IMG/VR virus record: IMGVR_UViG_3300023179_000070
Span: 1 to 64,000 of that record
Direction: 5' to 3' (one strand)
Length of the DNA stretch: 64,000 nucleotides
Source of the DNA: a virus
Lineage: Duplodnaviria > Caudoviricetes
Below the pieces are notes generated by a model. It made no database searches, was not told the origin of the DNA, and saw only the letters and a list, made by a program, of their open reading frames with translations. Shown here in pieces: positions 9,816 through 62,335 of the stretch. Each line of letters starts with the position of its first letter. Positions within the stretch are counted from its first letter, which is position 1. A program made the position numbers and the translations under genes.

Positions 9816-10826
9816 GTGCAAACTCAAGAAAAAGCTCAATTAAGATTACTTTTTGTTGACATATTAAAGGGTTATAGTTTAGCCTATTATAAAAATAATA
9901 AATTATATTTTAAGCATAATACCAGTTTTGATTCTGGTGATATAGACCATCTTAGGCAGGAATTTATTGAGAAAGCTAAAAAAAACGGCTTACCAACAGA
10001 AATTGAAAAAGAAAAATATTTAATCGGTGAAGAGTTATGGTCAGAAGATAAGAATCAACAAATTAAAAATATAAAATATTCAATATCTGGTTTAAAACAA
10101 ACTAAATCTAAATTATTTAAAAGTGATGATATTAATGAAATAAACAATAAAATTAATGAAGAAAATTTAAAATTAATTGAATTAAATTCTGAAAGAAAAG
10201 AATTATTAGGTTTTACAGTAGAGGATTATGCAAATAAAAAAATTAATGAATATTATATGTTTAATACATTGCATAAGGATAAAAATTTAAAAGAAAAGTT
10301 CTTTTCTGAAGAGCAGTTTGATGAATTAGAGAATAAAGACTTATCTGATATATTAAATATATATAATAATATTAATAAAAATTTTATAGAAAACAATCTT
10401 AAAAAGATCGCTCTGTCTTCTTATTATCTTAGTTTGTATAATTTATGCTCAGATAGTGCTTATAATTTATATGGAAAACCTATAGTTTATTTAACTTTTT
10501 ATCAAATGGAGGTATTTGGATATGCTAAATACTTTAAAAATGCTTTATCTGAAGCAAAAAATAAGCCAGCTGATGAATATTTTGAAGATCCAGAAAAATT
10601 AATAGAATGGTTAGAAAGTAGTAAAAATGTGGAAGAAGTACTTAATAAAACAGAAGAAAATCACAAAGGAACCGAAGGAGCCATAGCTACTTCTATTGTA
10701 GGTGCTAAAAAAGAAGATTTAGATAAGATCAAAAAAGACGAAAATGGCATTAGTCTACATCAAGAAGCAGAGAAAAAAGGTGGAGTTTTAACTATGCAGG
10801 ATTTAATGAAAATGCATGGAGTTTAA
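9816..10826 (+). CDS. putative tail assembly chaperone 2
   Basis: Directly upstream of tape measure; LTFYQ motif, coiled coil. Confidence 0.45.
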   Translation: MQTQEKAQLRLLFVDILKGYSLAYYKNNKLYFKHNTSFDSGDIDHLRQEFIEKAKKNGLPTEIEKEKYLIGEELWSEDKNQQIKNIKYSISGLKQTKSKLFKSDDINEINNKINEENLKLIELNSERKELLGFTVEDYANKKINEYYMFNTLHKDKNLKEKFFSEEQFDELENKDLSDILNIYNNINKNFIENNLKKIALSSYYLSLYNLCSDSAYNLYGKPIVYLTFYQMEVFGYAKYFKNALSEAKNKPADEYFEDPEKLIEWLESSKNVEEVLNKTEENHKGTEGAIATSIVGAKKEDLDKIKKDENGISLHQEAEKKGGVLTMQDLMKMHGV

Positions 10827-53220: not shown

Positions 53221-53226
53221 TTTACT

Positions 53227-53614
53227 TGGACCCGAGAGGAATTGAACCTCTGTCTTTTAAAAATCTAAATTAAAATACTACAAGTTTAGTTCTTTTTGTT
53301 TTTAGCTTTATATAGATAAAGAACAAACATACTTAGCGATTTTATTTTTAATACTTAATATTAATAGAATAAAAAAACTATTAATAATAAGACATCTAAT
53401 TCCGCAACTATCCAATAGATGTGTCAAGGTAGTCACGCTGTAGAACTTAGGCTACAGAAGCGGTCATCTCAACAAGAGGAACTCTTGCAGAGATATGACC
53501 TTTATATTTTGCTGTTTTGGCAGTTAATATAATTGAAACTTTTTAAGGAGTCCTCGATTCAACCTCCACTTGCATTTCAATTTATTTTCTTAAAATCGAA
53601 ACCAGTACGGGCCC
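53227..53614 (-). ncRNA. ssrA: tmRNA
   Basis: 5' GGGCCCGTACTGGTTTCGA; 3' GACAGAGGTTCAATTCCTCTCGGGTCCA; acceptor stem with G3-U pair; TAACT-GCC resume site; tag AKTAKYKGHISARVPLVEMTASVA* at 53521-53447. Confidence 0.92.
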
Positions 53615-53619
53615 AATGT

Positions 53620-53671
53620 TAAAGAACTAACTAATATTACACATTATAAAGCTTTTAATAATTTTTGACAA
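53620..53671 (-). promoter_or_regulatory. tandem tmRNA promoters plus boxA-like element
   Basis: TTGTCA-17-TATAAT directly followed by GTGTAAT-N7-AGTTCTTTAACA. Confidence 0.65.
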
Positions 53672-53686
53672 TCTTTTTTTAAATTA

Positions 53687-54625
53687 TTAATCGCCGCAAT
53701 CTTCCTTATCGTCATAATCATGTTTTGATGTTTTTTGGGCGCAACCCATAAAATTTTCATCATTTACAGTTCCCGAATCTTTTTGAGAATTATTTGAACC
53801 TTTTGTTTCTAATCCGTCTTGGGTAATTGCAACTACTTGATGTACATAATAGGATTCTGTTCCATCTCCATTATTATGAATAAATTCAATTGTATCGCCA
53901 ATTCGTACATCTTCTAAATCACAAAGAAGATTTGTTATTATTTGTTCGCCAGATTTTAGATCTGGGTGCATCGAAGAACCCTTTATTTTAGAAATCTTAA
54001 ATCCTCTTTTTAGTTTAAGTTGCGATCTTCTTGGAAGAGTATTTTGTGGATGGTTTGTTTCTTTATATGGATCGCAATCATTTTTTGAATCTTTTGGTTT
54101 CATATCTTTTGCTGCCTCAGTTAATTCTTTTGTTTGATCTTTATCTGCTAATTCATTACATGATGGACAATCTGCTCCACAATCATGCTCATTTTCGTAA
54201 GATTCTATTCTTGTGTCGTATTGTATTTTTATTTTATATTCAGCTAACATTGCGGCTGGTATATCATCTCCTGTTTCACAATTTACCCATGAATAATTTG
54301 TGAGACATTGATCAAAAGTTGCATCAATATCTTTAATGTCTGGTGGATTTTGATTTTTTGTTATCAATGTTCCTCCGCATGTATTTATGCACGCTTTAGA
54401 ATCTTGATTTGAATTTTTAGGAATAGAATTCTCTATTTTAACTCCAGATTTTTTATCTAAGATAATTTTCGGAGGTAAAACTCCTGAAGTGCCCTGATTT
54501 TTTTTAAGTGTCCAGGGCCCAGGAGGTCTAGATGGAATAGTTTTTAAACCACCAATGCGCTCACCATATATAATTGCATCTGTAGTTATAGTAGTCCATT
54601 TAGTTTTTCTTTTACAACATCCCAT
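53687..54625 (-). CDS. Cys-rich protein with C-terminal S24/S26 (signal-peptidase-like) domain
   Basis: GSSMHP..G, IGDTIEF, YVHQVV, TKGSNN..D; about 13 Cys overall. Confidence 0.65.
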   Translation of the reverse strand: MGCCKRKTKWTTITTDAIIYGERIGGLKTIPSRPPGPWTLKKNQGTSGVLPPKIILDKKSGVKIENSIPKNSNQDSKACINTCGGTLITKNQNPPDIKDIDATFDQCLTNYSWVNCETGDDIPAAMLAEYKIKIQYDTRIESYENEHDCGADCPSCNELADKDQTKELTEAAKDMKPKDSKNDCDPYKETNHPQNTLPRRSQLKLKRGFKISKIKGSSMHPDLKSGEQIITNLLCDLEDVRIGDTIEFIHNNGDGTESYYVHQVVAITQDGLETKGSNNSQKDSGTVNDENFMGCAQKTSKHDYDDKEDCGD

Positions 54626-54632
54626 AGAATTA

Positions 54633-56123
54633 TTAGTCCTTTCCTTTATTTAAAAAGTTTTGTAATTTTCTATATTTTTTATTTTTTATTATAAGTTCTG
54701 GTATATTATTTTTAATAATTTGACGAATTTTATTTGAAATAGTATATCTTGCATTTTTTTTCGCTGCATCTAGTGATGCATTTATATTATTTCCATATCC
54801 TCTACCAATTGCGTTTATATTATAATTAATAATTTCTACATTAGTATTATTAACTTTTCCTTGTGAATTAAAAGAAGTTTCATCATAATTTAAAATTAAA
54901 TTCTCTCTAATATAATAATTTATTTTTTGATCTAAAGCATCATCTGTTCCAAATCCAGAGTATACAATATGAAATTGATTGTGTGTTCCAATTTTTTTAT
55001 TTAATTCTGTTGAAATTAATTCTATTGTAAAATTAGTGTAAGCTGGAATTATTCCATTCCAAGTGCCTGTATTAAATGTTTTATTTCCAGTATATAAACC
55101 TGTATAAAATTTATAAAATAAAGTATCTTTAATTGGTATATTTTGTGTTAAATGTTGATTTTTATCTAATGAAATAAAATTATATATTCCAGTTTTTGGA
55201 AAAATATCTCCACTATAATATTCGCTTCCTAAAGTTAATGCTGGAATTTTAATTCCTGATGAAATTTTTGTATTTATGGTAGTGGTCTTTTTATTAATTG
55301 TATTTATATTGTATACTAATGTATTTTGATATCCAGTATGAATTCCATGGGGAGAAATATAGCATATATTATATTTTTCTCCATTCCCAGTTGATATTAA
55401 AATTATTCCATTCAAATTTTTAGAATTAGTTTGATTTGTATCTAAATAATTATATATTGGCGCAATTTTTGTATCACAAATATATGCATTATATTGCCAA
55501 TTTTGTAAAGAACTTGGATAACTTAAATAAAAACCACTATAACTAGGATTTCCAGGAATTGCTCCAGAAGTATTGGATTTTGTCCATGCTCTATAAAATG
55601 TACTATTTGTAAAATCTAATCCTGTAAAAAATCCTGAAATTAAACTTGGATTATATTTTTGATTATATTCACCTGTTAGTATTTTTGAATTTGAAAAATC
55701 TTTTGTAAAAGTAGCTCTAATAAATGTTTCATTTTTATTTAAATTAGTTATTTTTGGTTTTGTTTTATAAAATTGTTGAAAATAATCATAATTATTTGAA
55801 TAAAAAATATATTCATCTGGAAAAAAATAAGATAATTGTCCAATTAATGGAATTTCTAATTTATAATTTGTATAATTTTTTTTAAATTCTATAGGTATAT
55901 GATAAGTTTGATAACTTTCTGAATTTTTTTTTGATTCAATTTTATTTTTTAAAATAAGTTCTAATTCTGGATTTTTTAAAGTACCTACATTAATTATATC
56001 TAATTTGACATTTTGTAAAGATTTATGTGTTATTTTTTCGTCATCAATAAATTGTGATTCAGAATTTACTTTAAAAGTACTCCCAAATCCTAATTTAATT
56101 AAATCTTGTTTTGAAATTGACAT
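54633..56123 (-). CDS. hypothetical protein, possibly virion-associated
   Basis: 496 aa, TG/SG-rich like the tail proteins; lies downstream of the group I ribozyme. Confidence 0.6.
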   Translation of the reverse strand: MSISKQDLIKLGFGSTFKVNSESQFIDDEKITHKSLQNVKLDIINVGTLKNPELELILKNKIESKKNSESYQTYHIPIEFKKNYTNYKLEIPLIGQLSYFFPDEYIFYSNNYDYFQQFYKTKPKITNLNKNETFIRATFTKDFSNSKILTGEYNQKYNPSLISGFFTGLDFTNSTFYRAWTKSNTSGAIPGNPSYSGFYLSYPSSLQNWQYNAYICDTKIAPIYNYLDTNQTNSKNLNGIILISTGNGEKYNICYISPHGIHTGYQNTLVYNINTINKKTTTINTKISSGIKIPALTLGSEYYSGDIFPKTGIYNFISLDKNQHLTQNIPIKDTLFYKFYTGLYTGNKTFNTGTWNGIIPAYTNFTIELISTELNKKIGTHNQFHIVYSGFGTDDALDQKINYYIRENLILNYDETSFNSQGKVNNTNVEIINYNINAIGRGYGNNINASLDAAKKNARYTISNKIRQIIKNNIPELIIKNKKYRKLQNFLNKGKD

Positions 56124-56195
56124 ACATTTATGTTTAACCTTAACCCACCCACTTCGCCCGTTTTAACTACTAGCTTTTCTGGGGCAGGTCTAAAT

Positions 56196-56425
56196 CATTT
56201 TGTTATCGTTAAATTGTTTATATTTAACATCTTTATATCACTATAAAGTTCAGACTATATCTTCTTACTTTCGTAAGTTTGGGCGCTCGTGGGCAATGTT
56301 ATTGTTGGAACTCAATCGCCTAGTCGTTACACCTTACAACCTATCTTTCCCAGTTGTCTTGGCTCGGTATAATCTATTTTAGATTTCCACCGAATTCACC
56401 CAAAATGGTCATTTATTTAATAAAG
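56196..56425 (-). ncRNA. ORF-less group I intron / ribozyme
   Basis: P GAATTCGGTGGAA, Q ATACCGAGCCAAG, R GTGTAACGACTA, S AAGATATAGTCT; P3 TTTGGGTG/CGCCCAAA; P5, P6, P7.1, P8 (CTTAC-GAAA-GTAAG), P9 and P9.1 hairpins; candidate terminal G at 56196. Confidence 0.85.
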
Positions 56426-56436
56426 AACTATTTTTT

Positions 56437-56463
56437 ATTACACTATTTTTTTATTTGTGTAAT
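56437..56463. promoter_or_regulatory. back-to-back GTGTAAT motif pair
   Basis: Minus 56437-56443 (ribozyme) and plus 56457-56463 (8 nt before ATG 56472). Confidence 0.65.
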
Positions 56464-56471
56464 ATAAATAT

Positions 56472-57050
56472 ATGCCTAATTTATTACCATATAGAGATTA
56501 CAATGAGCACGATGTAATTAATTTATATACTTGCGTGACAGTTGCAAATAAAGGTATATTAGTTAAACCAATAACTTCCCCAAAAGATGATAATGGGACA
56601 GATAACTCTAGCGCTGGTCCATTAAAACTAACTTCTGATGGAGTTGGTGAAAGATTTAAAAATACTATAAGTGATTTATTTGAAATTGTAGGAGAGGTTT
56701 CTCCAGTTGTCAATTATAATGACGTTCCAGGACCAATAGGTATTTTATTGTATGATGTTAGGGATTTAGATGAAAATGGTGAAAAATTAATATATAATCC
56801 ACGAAAAATGGCAGAAAAAAATATAGTTCTTCCAAAAGTTCAAGCGGCACCAATTTTAACTAAAGGAATTATTTTAATAAATGATATAGATACTTTGAGT
56901 AAAACTGGCGGTGGAGGATTACCTTCTATTGGTGCAGCTGCTTATGTTGGTGATGATGGTAGGATAGGAACTGATGGAATAATAGTATTAGGAAAATTTT
57001 TAAGTAAAATAGATCAAAATGGTTACTGTTTGGTTAAATTAAATATTTAA
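56472..57050 (+). CDS. putative capsid decoration/cement-like protein
   Basis: PIGILL, V..LTKG, G..AYVG..G..G..LGKFL pattern typical of head decoration proteins; late motif upstream. Confidence 0.4.
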   Translation: MPNLLPYRDYNEHDVINLYTCVTVANKGILVKPITSPKDDNGTDNSSAGPLKLTSDGVGERFKNTISDLFEIVGEVSPVVNYNDVPGPIGILLYDVRDLDENGEKLIYNPRKMAEKNIVLPKVQAAPILTKGIILINDIDTLSKTGGGGLPSIGAAAYVGDDGRIGTDGIIVLGKFLSKIDQNGYCLVKLNI

Positions 57051-57245
57051 TAAATTTTGACAATCTTTTTTATAAACAAAATTAAATTTAACTCTTGATC
57101 CATTTATATCAGAAATTAGCTGGGGTATTGCGATACATGGATATTGCTCTGGTTCATCATAAATATTCTCATTAGAAATATTATAATGCTTAACACATTT
57201 ATTTGCATAAGCTGACCATCTGGCTTTATTTTTTATAATTTCCAT
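57039..57245 (-). CDS. hypothetical protein (probable start 57245)
   Basis: TTGAAG-17-TATAAT-6-ATG. Confidence 0.6.
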   Translation of the reverse strand: MEIIKNKARWSAYANKCVKHYNISNENIYDEPEQYPCIAIPQLISDINGSRVKFNFVYKKDCQNLLNI

Positions 57246-57265
57246 TAATATATTATAAAAATAAT

Positions 57266-57294
57266 TTGACAAAACTTCAAACTTAATATATTAT
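57266..57294 (+). promoter_or_regulatory. sigma70-type promoter facing an ORF-free structured region
   Basis: TTGACA-17-TATTAT. Confidence 0.7.
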
Positions 57295-57300
57295 AAGTTT

Positions 57301-57625
57301 ACATAGTTCCCAATTAGAGCAGTTTGTTGATGTCAAATAATCAACTATCAATCCTTGAGATAGCAATGTCCTAAGGGCTGACAACTATTAAAACCTTCAT
57401 TTGTACATAATATGGCTAAAGAAGGAAATGTAGCTATAGGCATCGCAGAATGTAGTGATCGAAGCTACCTCTGATCCGTAAGTGCGATGGCCCATTCATC
57501 ACTGAGATCGTGGTGAAATTTGGAGTCAAAAGAAAAGTTGGATTGATAATACCCAACTTCAGATATTTAAAATCTGGAGGTAAAGCCCTTTTGGATATCA
57601 AAGAAAAGTTAAATAATTAGGATAT
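57301..57625 (+). ncRNA. unidentified structured ncRNA candidate
   Basis: No long ORF, raised GC, many helices including a GCAA-capped hairpin and two crossing pairings. Confidence 0.55.
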
Positions 57626-57629
57626 CGTA

Positions 57630-58145
57630 TTAAAACCAAACTTCATTATGTATTATTCTTAATATTTTAATCCAGTCTTTAAGATGTTCTGATATATGTA
57701 TTTTGTCTGAATTTTCAAATCCATTTTTTGCTATATTATAATATATATTTTCTGATGGATAAGCTCTTCTTGCTTTATGTAAGTTTTTATAAAAAAATCC
57801 TAAAAATACTAAAAGTGATTTAGCTGTATCTTCGTCATGTTTGAATTCTAGTATAGATTTTTTAAAAATAGGCTCTCCAATTAAATCATAGAATTTTAAA
57901 CCAACTGCTTCTGAGACATATTCTTTTTCTTCAAATGAATATTTTAAATCTTTACTATATTTTATAATAGTTATTTCTGCAAATACTGGAAAACTTATAT
58001 CAACAATCCCATCTATATCTTCTTCTGAAATTTTATTTAATATTTCTGGCAAACAATCTGGATCTTGGATTAGTAAAAATGCTTTTTCTGGAGATAAGTC
58101 CAATTTTTTAGCAAAGAAATCAATATCTCTTTCAGATACTATCAC
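57630..58145 (-). CDS. hypothetical protein
   Basis: 171 aa; GTG start 7 nt after ATGTAAT variant. Confidence 0.65.
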   Translation of the reverse strand: MIVSERDIDFFAKKLDLSPEKAFLLIQDPDCLPEILNKISEEDIDGIVDISFPVFAEITIIKYSKDLKYSFEEKEYVSEAVGLKFYDLIGEPIFKKSILEFKHDEDTAKSLLVFLGFFYKNLHKARRAYPSENIYYNIAKNGFENSDKIHISEHLKDWIKILRIIHNEVWF

Positions 58146-58152
58146 TAATATT

Positions 58153-58173
58153 ATTACATTTTAAAAGTGTAAT
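58153..58173. promoter_or_regulatory. back-to-back (A/G)TGTAAT motif pair
   Basis: Minus 58153-58159, plus 58167-58173. Confidence 0.55.
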
Positions 58174-58187
58174 TTAGATTAAATATT

Positions 58188-59174
58188 ATGTTTAAATATA
58201 TACTTGGATTATCAGCCTTCTTATTAGCTTCTTGCGCAGCATTCTTTTCAGTTAAAGGAATAGCTCTACTTTTTGCAGCTAGTTTTTGGAGCGTTGGAAT
58301 AATGGCTGGAAGTTTAGAAATAGCAAAATTAGTTAGCGCAAGTTATCTTTATAGATATTGGTCAGTAATACATGATTTACTTAAAAAATATATGCTATCT
58401 GCTACGATATTACTGATGTGCATAACAAGTCTTGGTATTTTTGGTTTTCTTTCTGATGCTTTTCAACGTAATTTTTCTCAATATTCTTTAAACTTAAATA
58501 AAATTCAAAGTTTAAAATCTCAACAAAATTTTTATATTTCTCAAATAGATTTCAATAAAAGCAAATTAAAAGATTTAATTGAATTACAAAAAACATATCA
58601 AACATCTCTAGATAATGCCGTTAAACAAGATGTGACTACAACTAAAACTACTGGCGGTGGATTTTTCAGTTCCGCTAAAACTGAAAAAGTAACAGATATT
58701 AAATTAGTAGAAAGTAAAAATAAAATAGTTGAAGGATCTCAAGTTAATATCAATAACTTATTTTCTCAAATATCTACAGTAACTTCTGATCTTCAAAATT
58801 TAGAAAAACAAAGTCTAGAAAATAGTCAAGAAATAATGAGACTAGAGAGTGATAATACAAAAGGCGAAATTGGTACATTTAAATTTGTAGCTGATGCATT
58901 TGGATTAAAAATAGAAACTGCAGTAAGAATATTTATTATATTAATTGTTATTGTTTTTGATCCATTAGCAGTATGTTTAGTTATAGCTTACAACTCAATT
59001 ATTAAAAAAGTAGAAAATCAAGAATTGCAAAAAACAGAACAAAAAATTAAAAATATTATAGATAAACCATTAGATACTTTTAAAGTATTTTATGAAAATC
59101 TACATAAAAATTTTAAACGTGGTACAAAAATGCAACATAATCCAGAATTAGCTGACCCAAATATCAAGCATTAA
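58188..59174 (+). CDS. membrane protein with long coiled coil
   Basis: Three N-terminal TM segments, coiled coil, C-terminal TM ending FDPLA. Confidence 0.7.
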   Translation: MFKYILGLSAFLLASCAAFFSVKGIALLFAASFWSVGIMAGSLEIAKLVSASYLYRYWSVIHDLLKKYMLSATILLMCITSLGIFGFLSDAFQRNFSQYSLNLNKIQSLKSQQNFYISQIDFNKSKLKDLIELQKTYQTSLDNAVKQDVTTTKTTGGGFFSSAKTEKVTDIKLVESKNKIVEGSQVNINNLFSQISTVTSDLQNLEKQSLENSQEIMRLESDNTKGEIGTFKFVADAFGLKIETAVRIFIILIVIVFDPLAVCLVIAYNSIIKKVENQELQKTEQKIKNIIDKPLDTFKVFYENLHKNFKRGTKMQHNPELADPNIKH

Positions 59175-59350
59175 TATTTTTTAATTTTATAATTTTTAGT
59201 TGTAGGATCTAATTTAAGAACATGAGCTTTAGCTTTTATTAAGCCTTCTTTTGATGGAGGAAAAATTCCATGAAGAAAATTATCACTTTTACTATAAACA
59301 GCGTAATATTTAAGTTGTTTCTTCTTTTTTGTTTTGATTTTCTTTTTCAT
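59171..59350 (-). CDS. small basic protein (59 aa, absent from ORF track)
   Basis: MKKKIKTKKKKQLKYYAVYSKSDNFLHGIFPP...KKY*; fills the gap between neighbours. Confidence 0.55.
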   Translation of the reverse strand: MKKKIKTKKKKQLKYYAVYSKSDNFLHGIFPPSKEGLIKAKAHVLKLDPTTKNYKIKKY

Positions 59351-59561
59351 TTGTAATTTTTGTAAGATGCTCTCTTAGAGAGTCTCTAGCTTTTTCGCAG
59401 AAATCTTGATTTAATTGACCACAACAGTTTTTGAATTTTTTACCAGTATATGGGCAAATTGTATTTCTTGGTACTTTTGGATATATTCTTACTATTGGAC
59501 TGAACTCTGTTGCCCTAGCATATTCAATCGAAGTTAATTTGTCTATATTTTCTTTATTCAT
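59310..59561 (-). CDS. SEC-C motif protein (probable start 59561)
   Basis: RNTICPYTGKKFKNCCG; TTGATT-17-TATAAT-6-ATG. Confidence 0.65.
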   Translation of the reverse strand: MNKENIDKLTSIEYARATEFSPIVRIYPKVPRNTICPYTGKKFKNCCGQLNQDFCEKARDSLREHLTKITNEKENQNKKEETT

Positions 59562-59596
59562 TTTAATATTATAAGGCATTTATTAATTTAAATCAA

Positions 59597-60706
59597 TTAT
59601 TTTCCATGAGCGAATCCTTCATACATGCTATTTGGGCTATTTCTAACAGCTTGTATGGTATTATTCCATAAACCACCGCGCATATCTTGTAAATTCCTGA
59701 AACCAAGATAACTCATAGAGCTTCTCAAACCATTAGTAAAATCATATACAATATCCTCAATAGATTTATTTTCAATAATTGGAATCAAAGTATTATCTCC
59801 TTCGACAAATAAATTCTTTTTGGTTCCATCATATAAATCATAATCTTCTACAACATCTTGGCTAGCCATTCCTCTGTATTTAGCAAATCTTTTACCATCA
59901 ATTTCAATAATATTTTCATCGTCTACAACATCAGACAGTCCAGCGAAAATTCTACCACAAATAACAGCATCGCATCCACTAGCGATAGCTTTTACTAAGT
60001 CTTTTGGATATCTAATGCCACCATCAGCCAGAATACTTGGTCTATGAGATGGGTTAGGTTTGTCTTGTTTAAATAAATCAACTTGAGAAAGTTCCCAATT
60101 CCTCACAGCCTTCCAAGCGTAATAGTTTCCAGTTAGACTTGGACATCCAATTCCAGTTTTAACTTGAGTTAAGCACATAGAACCTGGACCAATCAAATGT
60201 CTAAATCCGTCTGATTTAAGATTAGCTAATCTATAAACGCTTTCTTTCGTTAAAGTATTACCAACTATAACATCTTGTGAAAATCCAGCAGTTTTATACC
60301 ATCTTAAAAAATCTTCTACGTTTTTAGCTAAACCATTAGCTGTATCTAAAAAGTAAACATTAGTAAAAGTACTAGTAGCTCTAATTCTTTCTTCTGCATC
60401 TTTTAAACCAATAGCAGTAACACAAAAATCACTTTCATTTTTAATAATTTTAGCTTTAGCTCTCTGATCATCAACACTCATAAATCTATGCAAAACTCCA
60501 GCTGCACCAAGTTTATTCATTTTAATACAAGATTTAACAGATGATACTGTATCCATAGGAGAAAGAATAATTGGAATTTTGATACTACAATTTCTTGAAA
60601 TTTTAGTAGTAGTATCTACTTCTTTTCTTGAGGTAATATTTGAAAAATTTGGAAGTAATGAAATATCATCATAACTTAAAGCTTCTTTGAATTCTTGTTT
60701 TTGCAT
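59597..60706 (-). CDS. guaB: IMP dehydrogenase / GMP reductase family, no CBS domains
   Basis: SPMDTV, GPGSMCLT, ADGGI, YRGMAS, EG, GLRSSMSY. Confidence 0.8.
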   Translation of the reverse strand: MQKQEFKEALSYDDISLLPNFSNITSRKEVDTTTKISRNCSIKIPIILSPMDTVSSVKSCIKMNKLGAAGVLHRFMSVDDQRAKAKIIKNESDFCVTAIGLKDAEERIRATSTFTNVYFLDTANGLAKNVEDFLRWYKTAGFSQDVIVGNTLTKESVYRLANLKSDGFRHLIGPGSMCLTQVKTGIGCPSLTGNYYAWKAVRNWELSQVDLFKQDKPNPSHRPSILADGGIRYPKDLVKAIASGCDAVICGRIFAGLSDVVDDENIIEIDGKRFAKYRGMASQDVVEDYDLYDGTKKNLFVEGDNTLIPIIENKSIEDIVYDFTNGLRSSMSYLGFRNLQDMRGGLWNNTIQAVRNSPNSMYEGFAHGK

Positions 60707-60784
60707 TTCTTTATATTAAACTATTCTTCTCAAACAATCAAGAAAATAATTGACTTAAAAATAAAAAAGTTTTAATATGTCTTT

Positions 60785-60856
60785 ATGTTTCAAACAGTTG
60801 CATGTATCATAATGGGTATTATAATATCTTTATATTGGCATTTTTCTACAAAATGA
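60785..60856 (+). CDS. small hydrophobic peptide (23 aa)
   Basis: TTGACT-17-TAATAT-6-ATG; MFQTVACIIMGIIISLYWHFSTK*; ATGA overlap with next gene. Confidence 0.5.
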   Translation: MFQTVACIIMGIIISLYWHFSTK

Positions 60857-61266
60857 ATAATAGAATATCATTTATTGAAGCAGCAATTCATACTGCTCAG
60901 ATTTGGTCGAATAGATCAGAAGATCCATATAAAAAAGTTGGAGTATGTATCTTAAATAAAGATGGAAGAGTATTATCTGTTGGATATAATGGTCTTTTAC
61001 CAAAATTTAATATTAAACAAGATTTTTTTAATGACAGAGATAATAGAAGAAAATATATGATTCACGCCGAAATCAATGCATTATCTCTTATAAAAAGAAA
61101 AGATGATCCTTATTTATTAGCTTCTACATTATTACCTTGCTCAAATTGTGCAACAAATATTGTTGCATATGGAGTTAAAAGTGTGGTATACTCAGAAGAA
61201 TATGAAAAGGATTCTACAGCAAAAGAAATATTTAAATTTTATAATATAGAATTAATTAAAATATGA
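60853..61266 (+). CDS. dCMP deaminase (probable start 60853)
   Basis: GYNG, HAEINA, PCSNC. Confidence 0.88.
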   Translation: MNNRISFIEAAIHTAQIWSNRSEDPYKKVGVCILNKDGRVLSVGYNGLLPKFNIKQDFFNDRDNRRKYMIHAEINALSLIKRKDDPYLLASTLLPCSNCATNIVAYGVKSVVYSEEYEKDSTAKEIFKFYNIELIKI

Positions 61267-61751
61267 AATATATAATACTATTATCTTTTATAGCTAATTT
61301 TGCTATTGCACAATCTGGAGTAGTTTATGAAACATATAAAACTACAGGTAGTACTAATGAATCACATGGAACAATTTTTACAAAACCTTTTCAAGAATAT
61401 AATTATGTCAAAACTGCTAGAGGTATAGAAGTTTATGAAACATATAAAACTGGAGGAGGAAATTCAACGAATCAATCTCATGGCACAATATTCTCTAAAC
61501 CTTTTCCAGAGTTTATTATAATTCAAAACAAAATGTATAGAACATATAAAACTGATGCAAGCTCTACAAACCAATCTCATGGAACGATATTCACTAAACC
61601 CTTTGAGTCTAAGGATATTGATGAAAATGTAGATACAAAAAGTTTAAAAGAAAATATACAAACTCAAGTACGAACTCAAGAAATTCATACTGGACAAAAT
61701 TATCCAAAATATGACGGAACTGGAGAAATATCTTATGGAGAAGAAAAATGA
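61263..61751 (+). CDS. exported protein with three internal repeats
   Basis: Signal peptide MKYIILLSFIANFAIA; 3x Y.TYKT...STN(E/Q)SHGTIF.KPF. Confidence 0.7.
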   Translation: MKYIILLSFIANFAIAQSGVVYETYKTTGSTNESHGTIFTKPFQEYNYVKTARGIEVYETYKTGGGNSTNQSHGTIFSKPFPEFIIIQNKMYRTYKTDASSTNQSHGTIFTKPFESKDIDENVDTKSLKENIQTQVRTQEIHTGQNYPKYDGTGEISYGEEK

Positions 61752-62335
61752 TAGGATTAACTGGAGTAGCTAGATCTGGAAAAGATACTTTTTATTCAAT
61801 ACTTCAAAAGTATTTAGAAGAAAAAAATATTAAATCTCAAAGAATTGCTTTGGCAGATAATCTAAAAAAAGAACTTGGAGATTTTACTAAAGAAAAATTT
61901 AAAATAGATTTAAATAAATGTGAGGGTAAGGATAAAGAATTAATTAGACCACTTATGGTTGCTTATGGTAAATGCAGAAGAGTTCAAACAGAAGGAAAAT
62001 ACTGGACATCTTTAGTAGAAACAGAAGTTAAAAATCTTAAAAAAGACAATATTATTCCAATAATTACAGATGTAAGATATATAGAATATAAAGAAGATGA
62101 ATATTCTTGGCTGAAATCACACAATGGTATTCTTATTCATATTTCTAGAAAACTAGACGATGGATCTTTAATTCCTCCAGCTAATATTGAAGAAAAATCT
62201 AATGATAATAAACTTAAAGCTGTTGCAGATTACTCGATTTCTTGGGAAACATGTCAAGATGTTAATTTTTTATATGAACTTATGCAAAAACAATTAAAAA
62301 ATATTTATGAAAAATATATGGAGAATAAAAAATAA
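61748..62335 (+). CDS. deoxynucleoside monophosphate kinase
   Basis: GLTGVARSGKDT, LAD.LK, ITDVRY. Confidence 0.8.
   Translation: MIGLTGVARSGKDTFYSILQKYLEEKNIKSQRIALADNLKKELGDFTKEKFKIDLNKCEGKDKELIRPLMVAYGKCRRVQTEGKYWTSLVETEVKNLKKDNIIPIITDVRYIEYKEDEYSWLKSHNGILIHISRKLDDGSLIPPANIEEKSNDNKLKAVADYSISWETCQDVNFLYELMQKQLKNIYEKYMENKK

Follow-up and report, generated by a model that had tools for sequence, protein, structure and literature searches.

A candidate new family of knotted noncoding RNA with twin purine tracts in uncultured lake phages

Introduction

What does a phage encode in a GC-rich gap between two genes that holds no open reading frame (ORF) of note? The question is raised by positions 57266-57625 of a 64,000-nucleotide (nt) stretch of phage DNA, referred to here as the window, which forms positions 1 to 64,000 of the IMG/VR record IMGVR_UViG_3300023179_000070. 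The source record is a phage sequence of 82 kb with an estimated completeness of 53% and a GC content of about 27%. The gap is flanked by two minus-strand genes, at 57039-57272 and 57630-58145. A preliminary description made from the letters alone had called it free of ORFs and enriched in GC, and both statements are accurate: its longest ORFs are merely 55 amino acids (aa) on the minus strand and 36 aa on the plus strand, with frames broken by insertions and deletions, and GC is 0.385-0.390 at 57300-57599 versus 0.21-0.285 in the flanks.

Comparison with relatives indicates that positions 57301-57615 of the plus strand are very probably a free-standing gene for a real noncoding RNA (ncRNA) of a new family, which is called the knotted RNA in this report. 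Homologues are present in about 60 IMG/VR phage contigs. The suggestion of a possibly novel large phage ncRNA is borne out by an element that is conserved, covarying, separately promoted and built with crossing helices, and that has no match in Rfam.

Homologues and Covariation

A search of IMG/VR with the neighbouring proteins returned 33 loci, of which 23 hold the stretch at 88-96% identity, six hold it in part and four do not; the whole records of four partial loci carry copies at about 68% identity. A search with the pattern of the two purine tracts described below returned 70 stretches, which nhmmer divided into 57 true homologues, 12 without a match and one with the motif alone. Full-length copies at 79 loci gave 45 distinct sequences in addition to the window, and 38 sequences at less than 97% identity. 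By identity to the window the homologues form three groups: a main group at 83-94%, group B at about 62% and group C at about 59%.

Helices were derived from a MAFFT alignment (A1), a covariance model (R1) was built, and 46 sequences were realigned as A2. In A1, which is not fitted to structure, 74 pairs are 95.1% paired versus 31-49% with slid partners, and double changes occur at 37 pairs versus 12-18 in the slid controls. A2 comprises 79 pairs in 16 helices that are 97.2% paired, versus 34.1-46.5% after a shift of the partners by 1-3 columns. The preliminary description had proposed collecting homologues and looking for covariation, and compensatory changes appear at 45 of these pairs versus 10-16 in the slid controls. 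The values observed in A2 were reached by none of 500 shuffles. R1 scores 384.8 bits on window positions 57298-57623.

Single-sequence folding gives -78.7 kcal/mol (z -2.6) for the plus strand and -77.3 kcal/mol (z -3.0) for the minus strand. The folding energy is modestly unusual, to a like degree on both strands; the proof of the knotted RNA is comparative and not thermodynamic. The strand is read from other evidence. G-U pairs fill 177 cells at 31 pairs and A-C mismatches 22 cells at eight pairs, in a count that used an alignment fitted to the plus-strand model, and the plus strand is 97.2% paired versus 92.7% for its minus-strand mirror. The excess of G-U over A-C, together with the conserved promoter described below, places the knotted RNA on the plus strand. 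No reading frame is kept among its relatives: insertions and deletions of 1, 2 and 4 nt separate close relatives and shift the open frames, and stop-free stretches of about 60 codons are present on the minus strand of the locus.

Architecture of the Fold

Covariation shows a compact predicted core in which the long-range helix P3 encloses P4, P4b, P6, P8, P9 and P10 and three pseudoknots lock these helices together (Table 1). The region of P8, P9a and P9 is 98-99% paired. Pseudoknots B and C take up nearly all of the P9 loop (57462-71), which makes the core tightly knotted. Pseudoknot C rests on one compensatory event, a change from A-U to C-G in five group B sequences, and pseudoknot A takes the form GAAGACU/AGUCUUC in group C, where it is aligned one column out of register. 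The unpaired junctions contain many invariant bases, for example GCAAYG, UAAAAC, GAAAUGUAG and UAAGUGC. Helix P12 takes in the GGAG of 'CUGGAGGU', so this GGAG is not a free ribosome-binding site.

Table 1. Features of the knotted RNA gene in window coordinates; fractions give the pairs of a helix that show compensatory changes.
Feature	Position	Strand	Description
Sigma-70-type promoter	57266..57294	+	-35 TTGACA 57266-71, 17-nt spacer, -10 TATTAT 57289-94
Knotted RNA gene	57301..57615	+	About 315 nt; conserved block ACATAG to GTTAA
P1 hairpin	57306-09 with 57317-20	+	100% of cells paired, 2/4 compensatory
P2 hairpin	57326-31 with 57340-45	+	91% paired, 4/6 compensatory
P3 long-range helix	57346-54 with 57540-48	+	Encloses the core; 97% paired, 9/9 compensatory
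Pseudoknot C	GAG 57357-59 with CUC 57469-71 (P9 loop)	+	All three pairs formed in 45/45
P4	57360-63 with 57385-88	+	100% paired
P4b	57367-69 with 57381-83	+	100% paired; 57367/57383 is C-G in 23, U-A in 22
Pseudoknot A	AAGGGCU 57373-79 (P4b loop) with AGCCCUU 57584-90	+	95.6% paired, 3/7 compensatory
P6 hairpin	57394-98 with 57421-25	+	Large conserved loop; 95% paired, 3/5 compensatory
Pseudoknot B	GUAGCU 57430-35 with AGCUAC 57463-68 (P9 loop)	+	97.8% paired, 2/6 compensatory
P8	57439-47 with 57483-92	+	G57490 bulged; encloses P9a and P9; 3/9 compensatory
P9a	57450-52 with 57477-79	+	Inside P8
P9	57457-60 with 57473-76	+	Inside P8; 3/4 compensatory
P10 hairpin	57495-502 with 57510-17	+	98.5% paired, 7/8 compensatory
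Purine tract 1	57522..57539	+	GGAGUC-AAAAGAAAAGUU; single-stranded between P10 and the 3' strand of P3
P12 hairpin	57557-64 with 57572-79	+	Extended to eight pairs; 95.5% paired, 5/8 compensatory
Purine tract 2	57593..57611	+	GGAUAUC-AAAGAAAAGUUA; single-stranded 3' tail after pseudoknot A

The preliminary description had drawn ten helices, and scoring on the 45 distinct sequences leaves eight standing, one wrong and one undecided. Those that stand are GTTGAT/ATCAAC (P2; 91% paired, 4/6 compensatory), CCTTC/GAAGG (P6; 95%, 3/5), CATCGCA/TGCGATG (98%, 3/7), TTCATCAC/GTGGTGAA (98.5%, 7/8), CAGAT/ATCTG (94%, 4/5), the long-range pair TATCAATCC/GGATTGATA (97%, 9/9), and the crossing pairs GTAGCT/AGCTAC (pseudoknot B; 98%, 2/6) and GGGCT/AGCCC (96%, 1/5). 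The hairpin CCTTGAGATA-GCAA-TGTCCTAAGG falls: only 77% of it is paired, 40 of 45 sequences have an A-C mismatch in it, and its bases belong to four other helices. Between these stands AAGTTGG/CCAACTT, which is 89% paired and has a three-pair core without compensatory change. Further candidates were rejected in the course of the analysis: a helix GUU/AAC (57537-39 with 57555-57) shows no compensatory change, and P6, P12 and pseudoknot A have better support than the local pairings ACCUU/GAGGU and GAGG/CCUU, with which they compete.

Promoter, Ends and Presence in RNA Libraries

The sigma-70-type promoter ahead of the knotted RNA matches the consensus at 11 of 12 positions. The region holds 12 promoter-like sites versus 9.9 +/- 3.2 in shuffles, a count so near the shuffled level that a promoter scan alone proves nothing, and the evidence lies in conservation. 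The consensus promoter TTGACA-17-TATTAT named in the preliminary description is present, and its layout of TTGACA, 17-nt spacer and TAnnAT is kept in all 46 distinct homologues (window included) while the letters of the spacer drift. The end of the -10 element lies 7-11 nt before a conserved CATAG, and exactly 7 nt before it in 32 of 46, which places the start of the knotted RNA near A57301; we infer a 5' end at this base, 7 nt past the -10 element. Conservation fades near 57612-57615, which serves as the approximate 3' limit. In the gap beside the knotted RNA, a search for iterons and repeats found AT-rich chance repeats only.

Parts of the stretch are contained in 21 runs recorded as RNA. 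Four metatranscriptome runs from four lake or freshwater studies, chosen because they contain the stretch, all hold contigs 90-99% alike that cover the knotted RNA, so the RNA-seq coverage proposed as a check was found, with strand and level not readable from contigs. These contigs start at 57312, 57317, 57319 and 57320. One contig has sequencing adapter immediately before 57312, and there is no other loose upstream end. The starts lend weak support to a 5' end just downstream of the promoter. One contig extends to 57728 and reaches the 3' end of the convergent gene. The four runs leave the flanks 57076-57295 and 57736-57999 uncovered, a gap that carries no weight as evidence.

Distribution and Conservation

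The phages that carry the knotted RNA are a widespread clade of uncultured lake phages, and the RNA family is, as far as found, confined to this one clade. A looser twin-tract pattern, which is too low in complexity, returned 105 stretches on viral contigs with no new member and at least 120 stretches on genome contigs with no new member among the matches listed. Applying cmsearch to 66 pattern loci gave short motif-driven matches only, and nhmmer on pattern loci L111-L280 gave no match. Model R1 was run over 307 sampled bacterial genomes (five, and a further 151 + 151 from two orders), and no cellular homologue was found. Two weak matches to R1 were rejected as chance: L281 drops to 5.9 bits after re-scoring, and L282 is contained in a 517-aa ORF and has no core. 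R1 is also without a match in four fragmentary relatives (35-67% complete) that carry the neighbour genes.

A blastn search of 57250-57640 against phage GenBank records gave no match, and with the phage DNA polymerase as tblastn query all matches fell below 33% identity, which means that no cultured relative, and hence no host name, can be given. No description of the knotted RNA was found in the published literature, of which the supplementary lists of PMC10690425 may hold fragments. Passages of PMC10690425, 10.64898/2026.10.21.760802 and 10.64898/2026.09.22.753630 do not describe it. The IMG/VR candidate RNAs listed in passages of PMC10690425 are 29-151 nt only.

The knotted RNA is conserved more strongly than its surroundings. 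The adjacent 171-aa gene is less identical than the knotted RNA in 21 of 22 loci (medians 82.4% versus 93.0%), and the transfer-messenger RNA (tmRNA) is less identical in 19 of 19 (tmRNA median 89.7%). A tmRNA is present in 31 of 41 loci scanned. The usual order in the main group and group C is the 171-aa gene, the knotted RNA, a small divergent ORF and the tmRNA, with the two RNAs as divergent neighbours in the loci read (e.g., L002 and L031); in L002 about 294 nt and a single small ORF lie between the knotted RNA and the tmRNA gene. In group B some 16 kb separate the knotted RNA from the tmRNA, which keeps the small ORF at its side, and some 4 kb separate it from the 171-aa gene. This placement apart from the tmRNA and small ORF makes the knotted RNA gene an autonomous module, whose own promoter is kept in three different neighbourhoods. 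The neighbours were rejected as partners of the RNA on the same ground, as in group B the small ORF follows the tmRNA and the 171-aa gene is 4 kb off. The 171-aa, 192-aa and 77-aa neighbour ORFs have no Pfam or PHROG family.

Comparison with Known RNA Families

Rfam 15 comprises 4227 covariance models. At gathering thresholds, the tmRNA at 53226-53614 is the sole match in the entire window. At E<=10, positions 55900-57900 yield a group I RNA at 56231-56449 on the minus strand and a chance small nucleolar RNA match, with none in the stretch, and at E<=1 the group B and C loci L035, L038 and L072 yield tmRNA only. ARAGORN reports a single tmRNA in the window, at 53227-53614, and no transfer RNA (tRNA) or tmRNA in the stretch. 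The Rfam cmscan proposed as a check therefore matched no known family, even permissively, and the statement that the stretch lacks an RNase P, signal recognition particle (SRP), 6S, tRNA or intron signature agrees with both programs. The knotted RNA can be regarded as a family outside the Rfam catalogue.

RNase P RNA has a terminal P1 helix that joins its 5' and 3' ends and a P4 pseudoknot formed from CR-I and CR-V, and it removes the 5' leaders of pre-tRNA or pre-tmRNA by cleavage. The covarying structure of the knotted RNA has no end-joining helix, and no RNase P model matches it. Group I introns are marked by a P3-P7 pseudoknot and a G-binding site; RF00028 (group I intron) scores 58.7 bits at 56231-56449 (minus strand) and finds nothing in 57266-57625. 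The preliminary description had placed the stretch less than 1 kb from this group I RNA, which holds in this genome and is peculiar to it, as relatives differ. The tmRNA family (RF00023) resembles the knotted RNA in several ways: each is a stable RNA encoded by the phage, measures 300-400 nt, has many pseudoknots and is transcribed from a sigma-70-type promoter. Unlike tmRNA, the knotted RNA has no tRNA-like domain with acceptor and T arms, no conserved tag frame and no Rfam or ARAGORN match, and it is the more conserved of the two. A cis-acting leader or riboswitch is a poor description as well: no same-strand gene precedes the convergent gene at 57630-58145, and the neighbourhood differs among the groups.

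ROOL (RF03087) and GOLLD (RF01998) are ornate RNAs of phages and prophages and share with the knotted RNA that they are large, intricate, phage-borne ncRNAs without a known function. No covariance model of either matches the knotted RNA, which is about half their size or less, dense in pseudoknots and equipped with twin purine tracts. GOLLD, ROOL and OLE form homo-oligomeric RNA-only complexes, according to PMC12286853. The P6 loop of the knotted RNA holds the self-complementary word UGUACA at 57402-57407, with UGUGCA/UGUACA in group C and AAGCUU/UUUAAA in group B. A self-complementary word of at least 6 nt occurs in 22 of 25 distinct P6 loops, from sequences that are related, versus about 34% of shuffled loops. 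This palindrome could be a kissing-dimer site, a weak hint of oligomer formation, although a short inner CAU/AUG stem capped by a variable triloop accounts for part of it.

Sponge RNAs such as CsrB and RsmZ, and the A-R-N tracts of Hfq ligands, bind several copies of one protein through repeated single-stranded motifs. In CsrB and RsmZ these are numerous GGA motifs, exposed in loops and bound by CsrA/RsmA. Each tract of the knotted RNA starts with GGA and continues in an A-R-N-like run, a likeness in manner of working only. The knotted RNA has two conserved single-stranded tracts headed by GGA, the GGAG at 57576-79 being paired in P12. In contrast to CsrB and RsmZ it has only two sites, and a knotted core instead of a row of hairpins. 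All 12-13 bases of the tracts are fixed, which degenerate GGA or A-R-N recognition would not need.

The T4 gene 32 operator consists of a pseudoknot followed by an unstructured A/U-rich stretch. The knotted RNA likewise carries an A-rich single strand directly after a pseudoknot, which in the operator nucleates protein binding. The operator is a cis messenger RNA leader, whereas the knotted RNA is far larger and has no downstream gene on the same strand. A gp32-binding pseudoknot is recorded in a passage of PMC10690425.

DRT2 offers a further likeness in a structured ncRNA, which in that system is encoded together with a reverse transcriptase and is a template copied repeatedly. Identical direct repeats that flank the DRT2 ncRNA would allow jumping. 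The knotted RNA differs in that no reverse transcriptase is found beside it or in five phage records, and the length of its unit is not kept. A passage of 10.64898/2026.09.22.753630 describes the DRT2 ncRNA as reverse-transcribed into concatemeric complementary DNA.

Twin Purine Tracts

The two purine tracts share the core GGA-N2-3-Y-AAA(A)GAAAAGUU and lie about 71 nt apart. Both are almost unchanged in all 38 sequences compared, whose groups share about 60% identity overall. The variable Y (57527 in tract 1) changes jointly in the two tracts, with C/C in 33 sequences, U/U in five and a mixed state in none (n=38). The U/U variants are L013, L056 and three members of group C.

A 10-nt tract word occurs outside the knotted RNA 12 times in sense and once in antisense in the records G000, G001, G006, G007 and G008. 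We take the extra sense words to reflect purine loading, a property of coding strands, rather than target sites. The one extra word in the window, at 10290, lies in a plus-strand ORF. The reverse transcriptase model (PF00078, RVT_1) matched none of five phage records, one of them 100% complete, and its control matched in three of 14 genomes. A RegA model (PF01818) matched nowhere, its controls included. What remains as candidate partner is a host RNA or protein, an unrecognised phage protein, or, with no partner of either kind, a mechanism that would need identical copies, such as template jumping.

Genomic Surroundings

The small ORF at 57039-57272 (minus strand) is divergent from the knotted RNA and has a probable start at the Met of MEIIKNK, giving about 68 aa; it is 40-90% identical in the main group and group C and belongs to no family. 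Relative to close relatives such as L002 (4897-5141), the window has about 3.4 kb extra between the tmRNA and the small ORF (53615-57038). Within this insert lie the group I ribozyme and three ORFs, one of 312 aa that weakly matches an S26 peptidase, one of 496 aa and the 192-aa ORF. In L002 the tmRNA promoter sits directly within the 3' end of the small ORF. When L002 4001-4896 is compared with window 57250-58145, the DNA of the 171-aa gene is 100% identical, the knotted RNA 96.5% and the tmRNA 95.6%. An identical gene beside diverged RNAs suggests a recombination boundary at the end of the gene.

The tmRNA at 53227-53614 (minus strand) and those of records G001, G003, G006 and G008 are one-piece molecules with a 24-aa tag ending in SVA. 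No SmpB gene was found in five phage records, one of them complete; these phages must rely on the SmpB of the host. At 54000-62000 both gene orientation and cumulative GC skew switch, with minus-strand genes to the left and plus-strand genes to the right; this switch could be a module boundary or a replication origin.

The word GTGTAAT occurs 11 times in the window, at 1002, 4818, 7275, 8513, 10858, 25230, 39598, 53636 (minus), 56437 (minus), 56457 and 58167, a count not above chance (7.7 +/- 2.9). At least 10 of the 11 copies precede a gene or RNA gene by no more than about 75 nt and are co-oriented with it, often 15-30 nt before a start codon without a Shine-Dalgarno sequence. By its placement GTGTAAT looks like a putative phage-specific promoter. 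The knotted RNA has no GTGTAAT and carries the sigma-70-type promoter only.

Discussion

The explanation that best fits the locus as a whole, held with a probability of roughly 55%, is that the knotted RNA is a gene of a new family that would act in trans as a scaffold or decoy with twin docking tracts. The RNA would be read from its host-type sigma-70 promoter by the host polymerase, early in infection. Its rigid knotted core would hold out the two single-stranded purine tracts, and both would dock the same partner, either as two copies or as a dimer. That partner would most likely be a protein, of host or phage origin, with affinity for A-rich single strands and, less likely, a pyrimidine-rich host RNA. 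Acting in trans, the RNA would let the phage capture or redirect the docked partner. The docking or decoy mechanism taken by itself is tentative, and the odds are rather against it.

Several observations tell against this explanation or loosen its grounds. As A2 was fitted to the model, its counts lean towards structure, and the main-group sequences are closely related, so independent events are fewer than the cell counts suggest. A terminator scan found no plus-strand terminator for the knotted RNA, whose 3' end is placed by conservation. A contig reveals neither strand nor level nor true ends, and DNA may be present in an RNA library. The joint C-to-U change of the tracts comes from only two or three lineages (L013, L056 and group C). 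On the side of the partner, a search for the complement of the tract word in five phage records found no conserved antisense site; duplexes with the phage tmRNA are no better than those of shuffles, of which 38-197 of 200 do as well; and hidden Markov models of SmpB, Hfq and CsrA each matched none of five phage records while their controls matched.

The main rivals to a scaffold or decoy are a new ribozyme and a role as template or primer. A ribozyme of a new class would process itself or act on a substrate such as the phage tmRNA precursor, with the knotted core as active site and the invariant junction bases as catalytic residues. Three pseudoknots and many invariant unpaired junction bases are typical of catalytic or ligand-binding cores, the gene stands among other RNA genes (the tmRNA and, here, the group I ribozyme), and its 3' end is seemingly formed without a terminator. 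However, no Rfam ribozyme family matches, the topology lacks the RNase P terminal helix, and the contigs display no joints or shared internal ends, although the last is weak evidence; catalysis is judged unlikely. A template or primer would use the tracts as direct repeats for polymerase jumping, in rolling reverse transcription like that of DRT2, or would serve as a polypurine, RNase H-resistant origin primer. It is attractive that the tracts delimit a unit of about 71 nt without ever differing from each other, as template jumping needs such identity and no outside partner, and that the gene is located at the switch of orientation and GC skew. The skew simply tracks gene orientation, though, and group B has the gene at a different genome location; the unit varies in length by 1-4 nt and carries stops, and PF00078 is missing from the five phage records. 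This role is considered quite improbable.

It is very improbable that the locus does not make a free RNA at all and instead serves the convergent 171-aa gene as 3' untranslated region or antisense regulator, encodes a small protein or is a DNA element. The RNA-library contig that reaches 57728, in the 3' end of the convergent gene, and the minus-strand stretches of about 60 stop-free codons would fit such a reading, whereas the G-U to A-C ratio of 177 to 22 favours the plus strand, the plus-strand promoter is invariant and in group B some 4 kb separate the RNA from the 171-aa gene. Any frame is disrupted by indels of 1, 2 and 4 nt, and crossing helices with G-U pairs misfit a DNA cruciform. 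It is scarcely probable either that the RNA belongs, in highly diverged form, to a known class (RNase P, tmRNA, SRP, 6S, group I, ROOL or GOLLD). Size, pseudoknots and the place beside the tmRNA are reminiscent of these classes, and GAGGUAAAGCC (57577-87) slightly resembles the RNase P motif GAGGAAAGUCC; yet the GAGG of GAGGUAAAGCC is paired in P12 and its remainder contributes to a pseudoknot on the 3' and not the 5' side. No pairing joins the two ends of the RNA, and neither Rfam (E<=10 for the window stretch, E<=1 for groups B and C) nor ARAGORN reports a member. A bolder idea is an RNA-only machine, in which a new-class ribozyme or a self-assembling ornate particle with two identical purine arms would seize a host factor of translation or RNA surveillance early in infection. 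A possible target would be a binder of A-rich strands on the ribosome, and the phages also carry their own tmRNA. In a still bolder variant the identical arms would be jump sites that hijack a host RNA-templated defence polymerase. The RNA-only machine is a doubtful proposal.

Significance

Large structured ncRNAs without a known job are rare, and past ones have led to ribozymes, riboswitches and RNA cages. For the knotted RNA the gene and the fold are well supported, while the scaffold or decoy mechanism is what we infer from them. Purifying selection acts more strongly on the RNA than on the phage's own tmRNA, and its dense core with three pseudoknots is already defined by covariation. The co-changing twin tracts provide a concrete handle for pull-downs and mutagenesis. 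Its occurrence in a widespread clade of uncultured lake phages suggests that the knotted RNA probably marks an unrecognised step in the dealings between phage and host.

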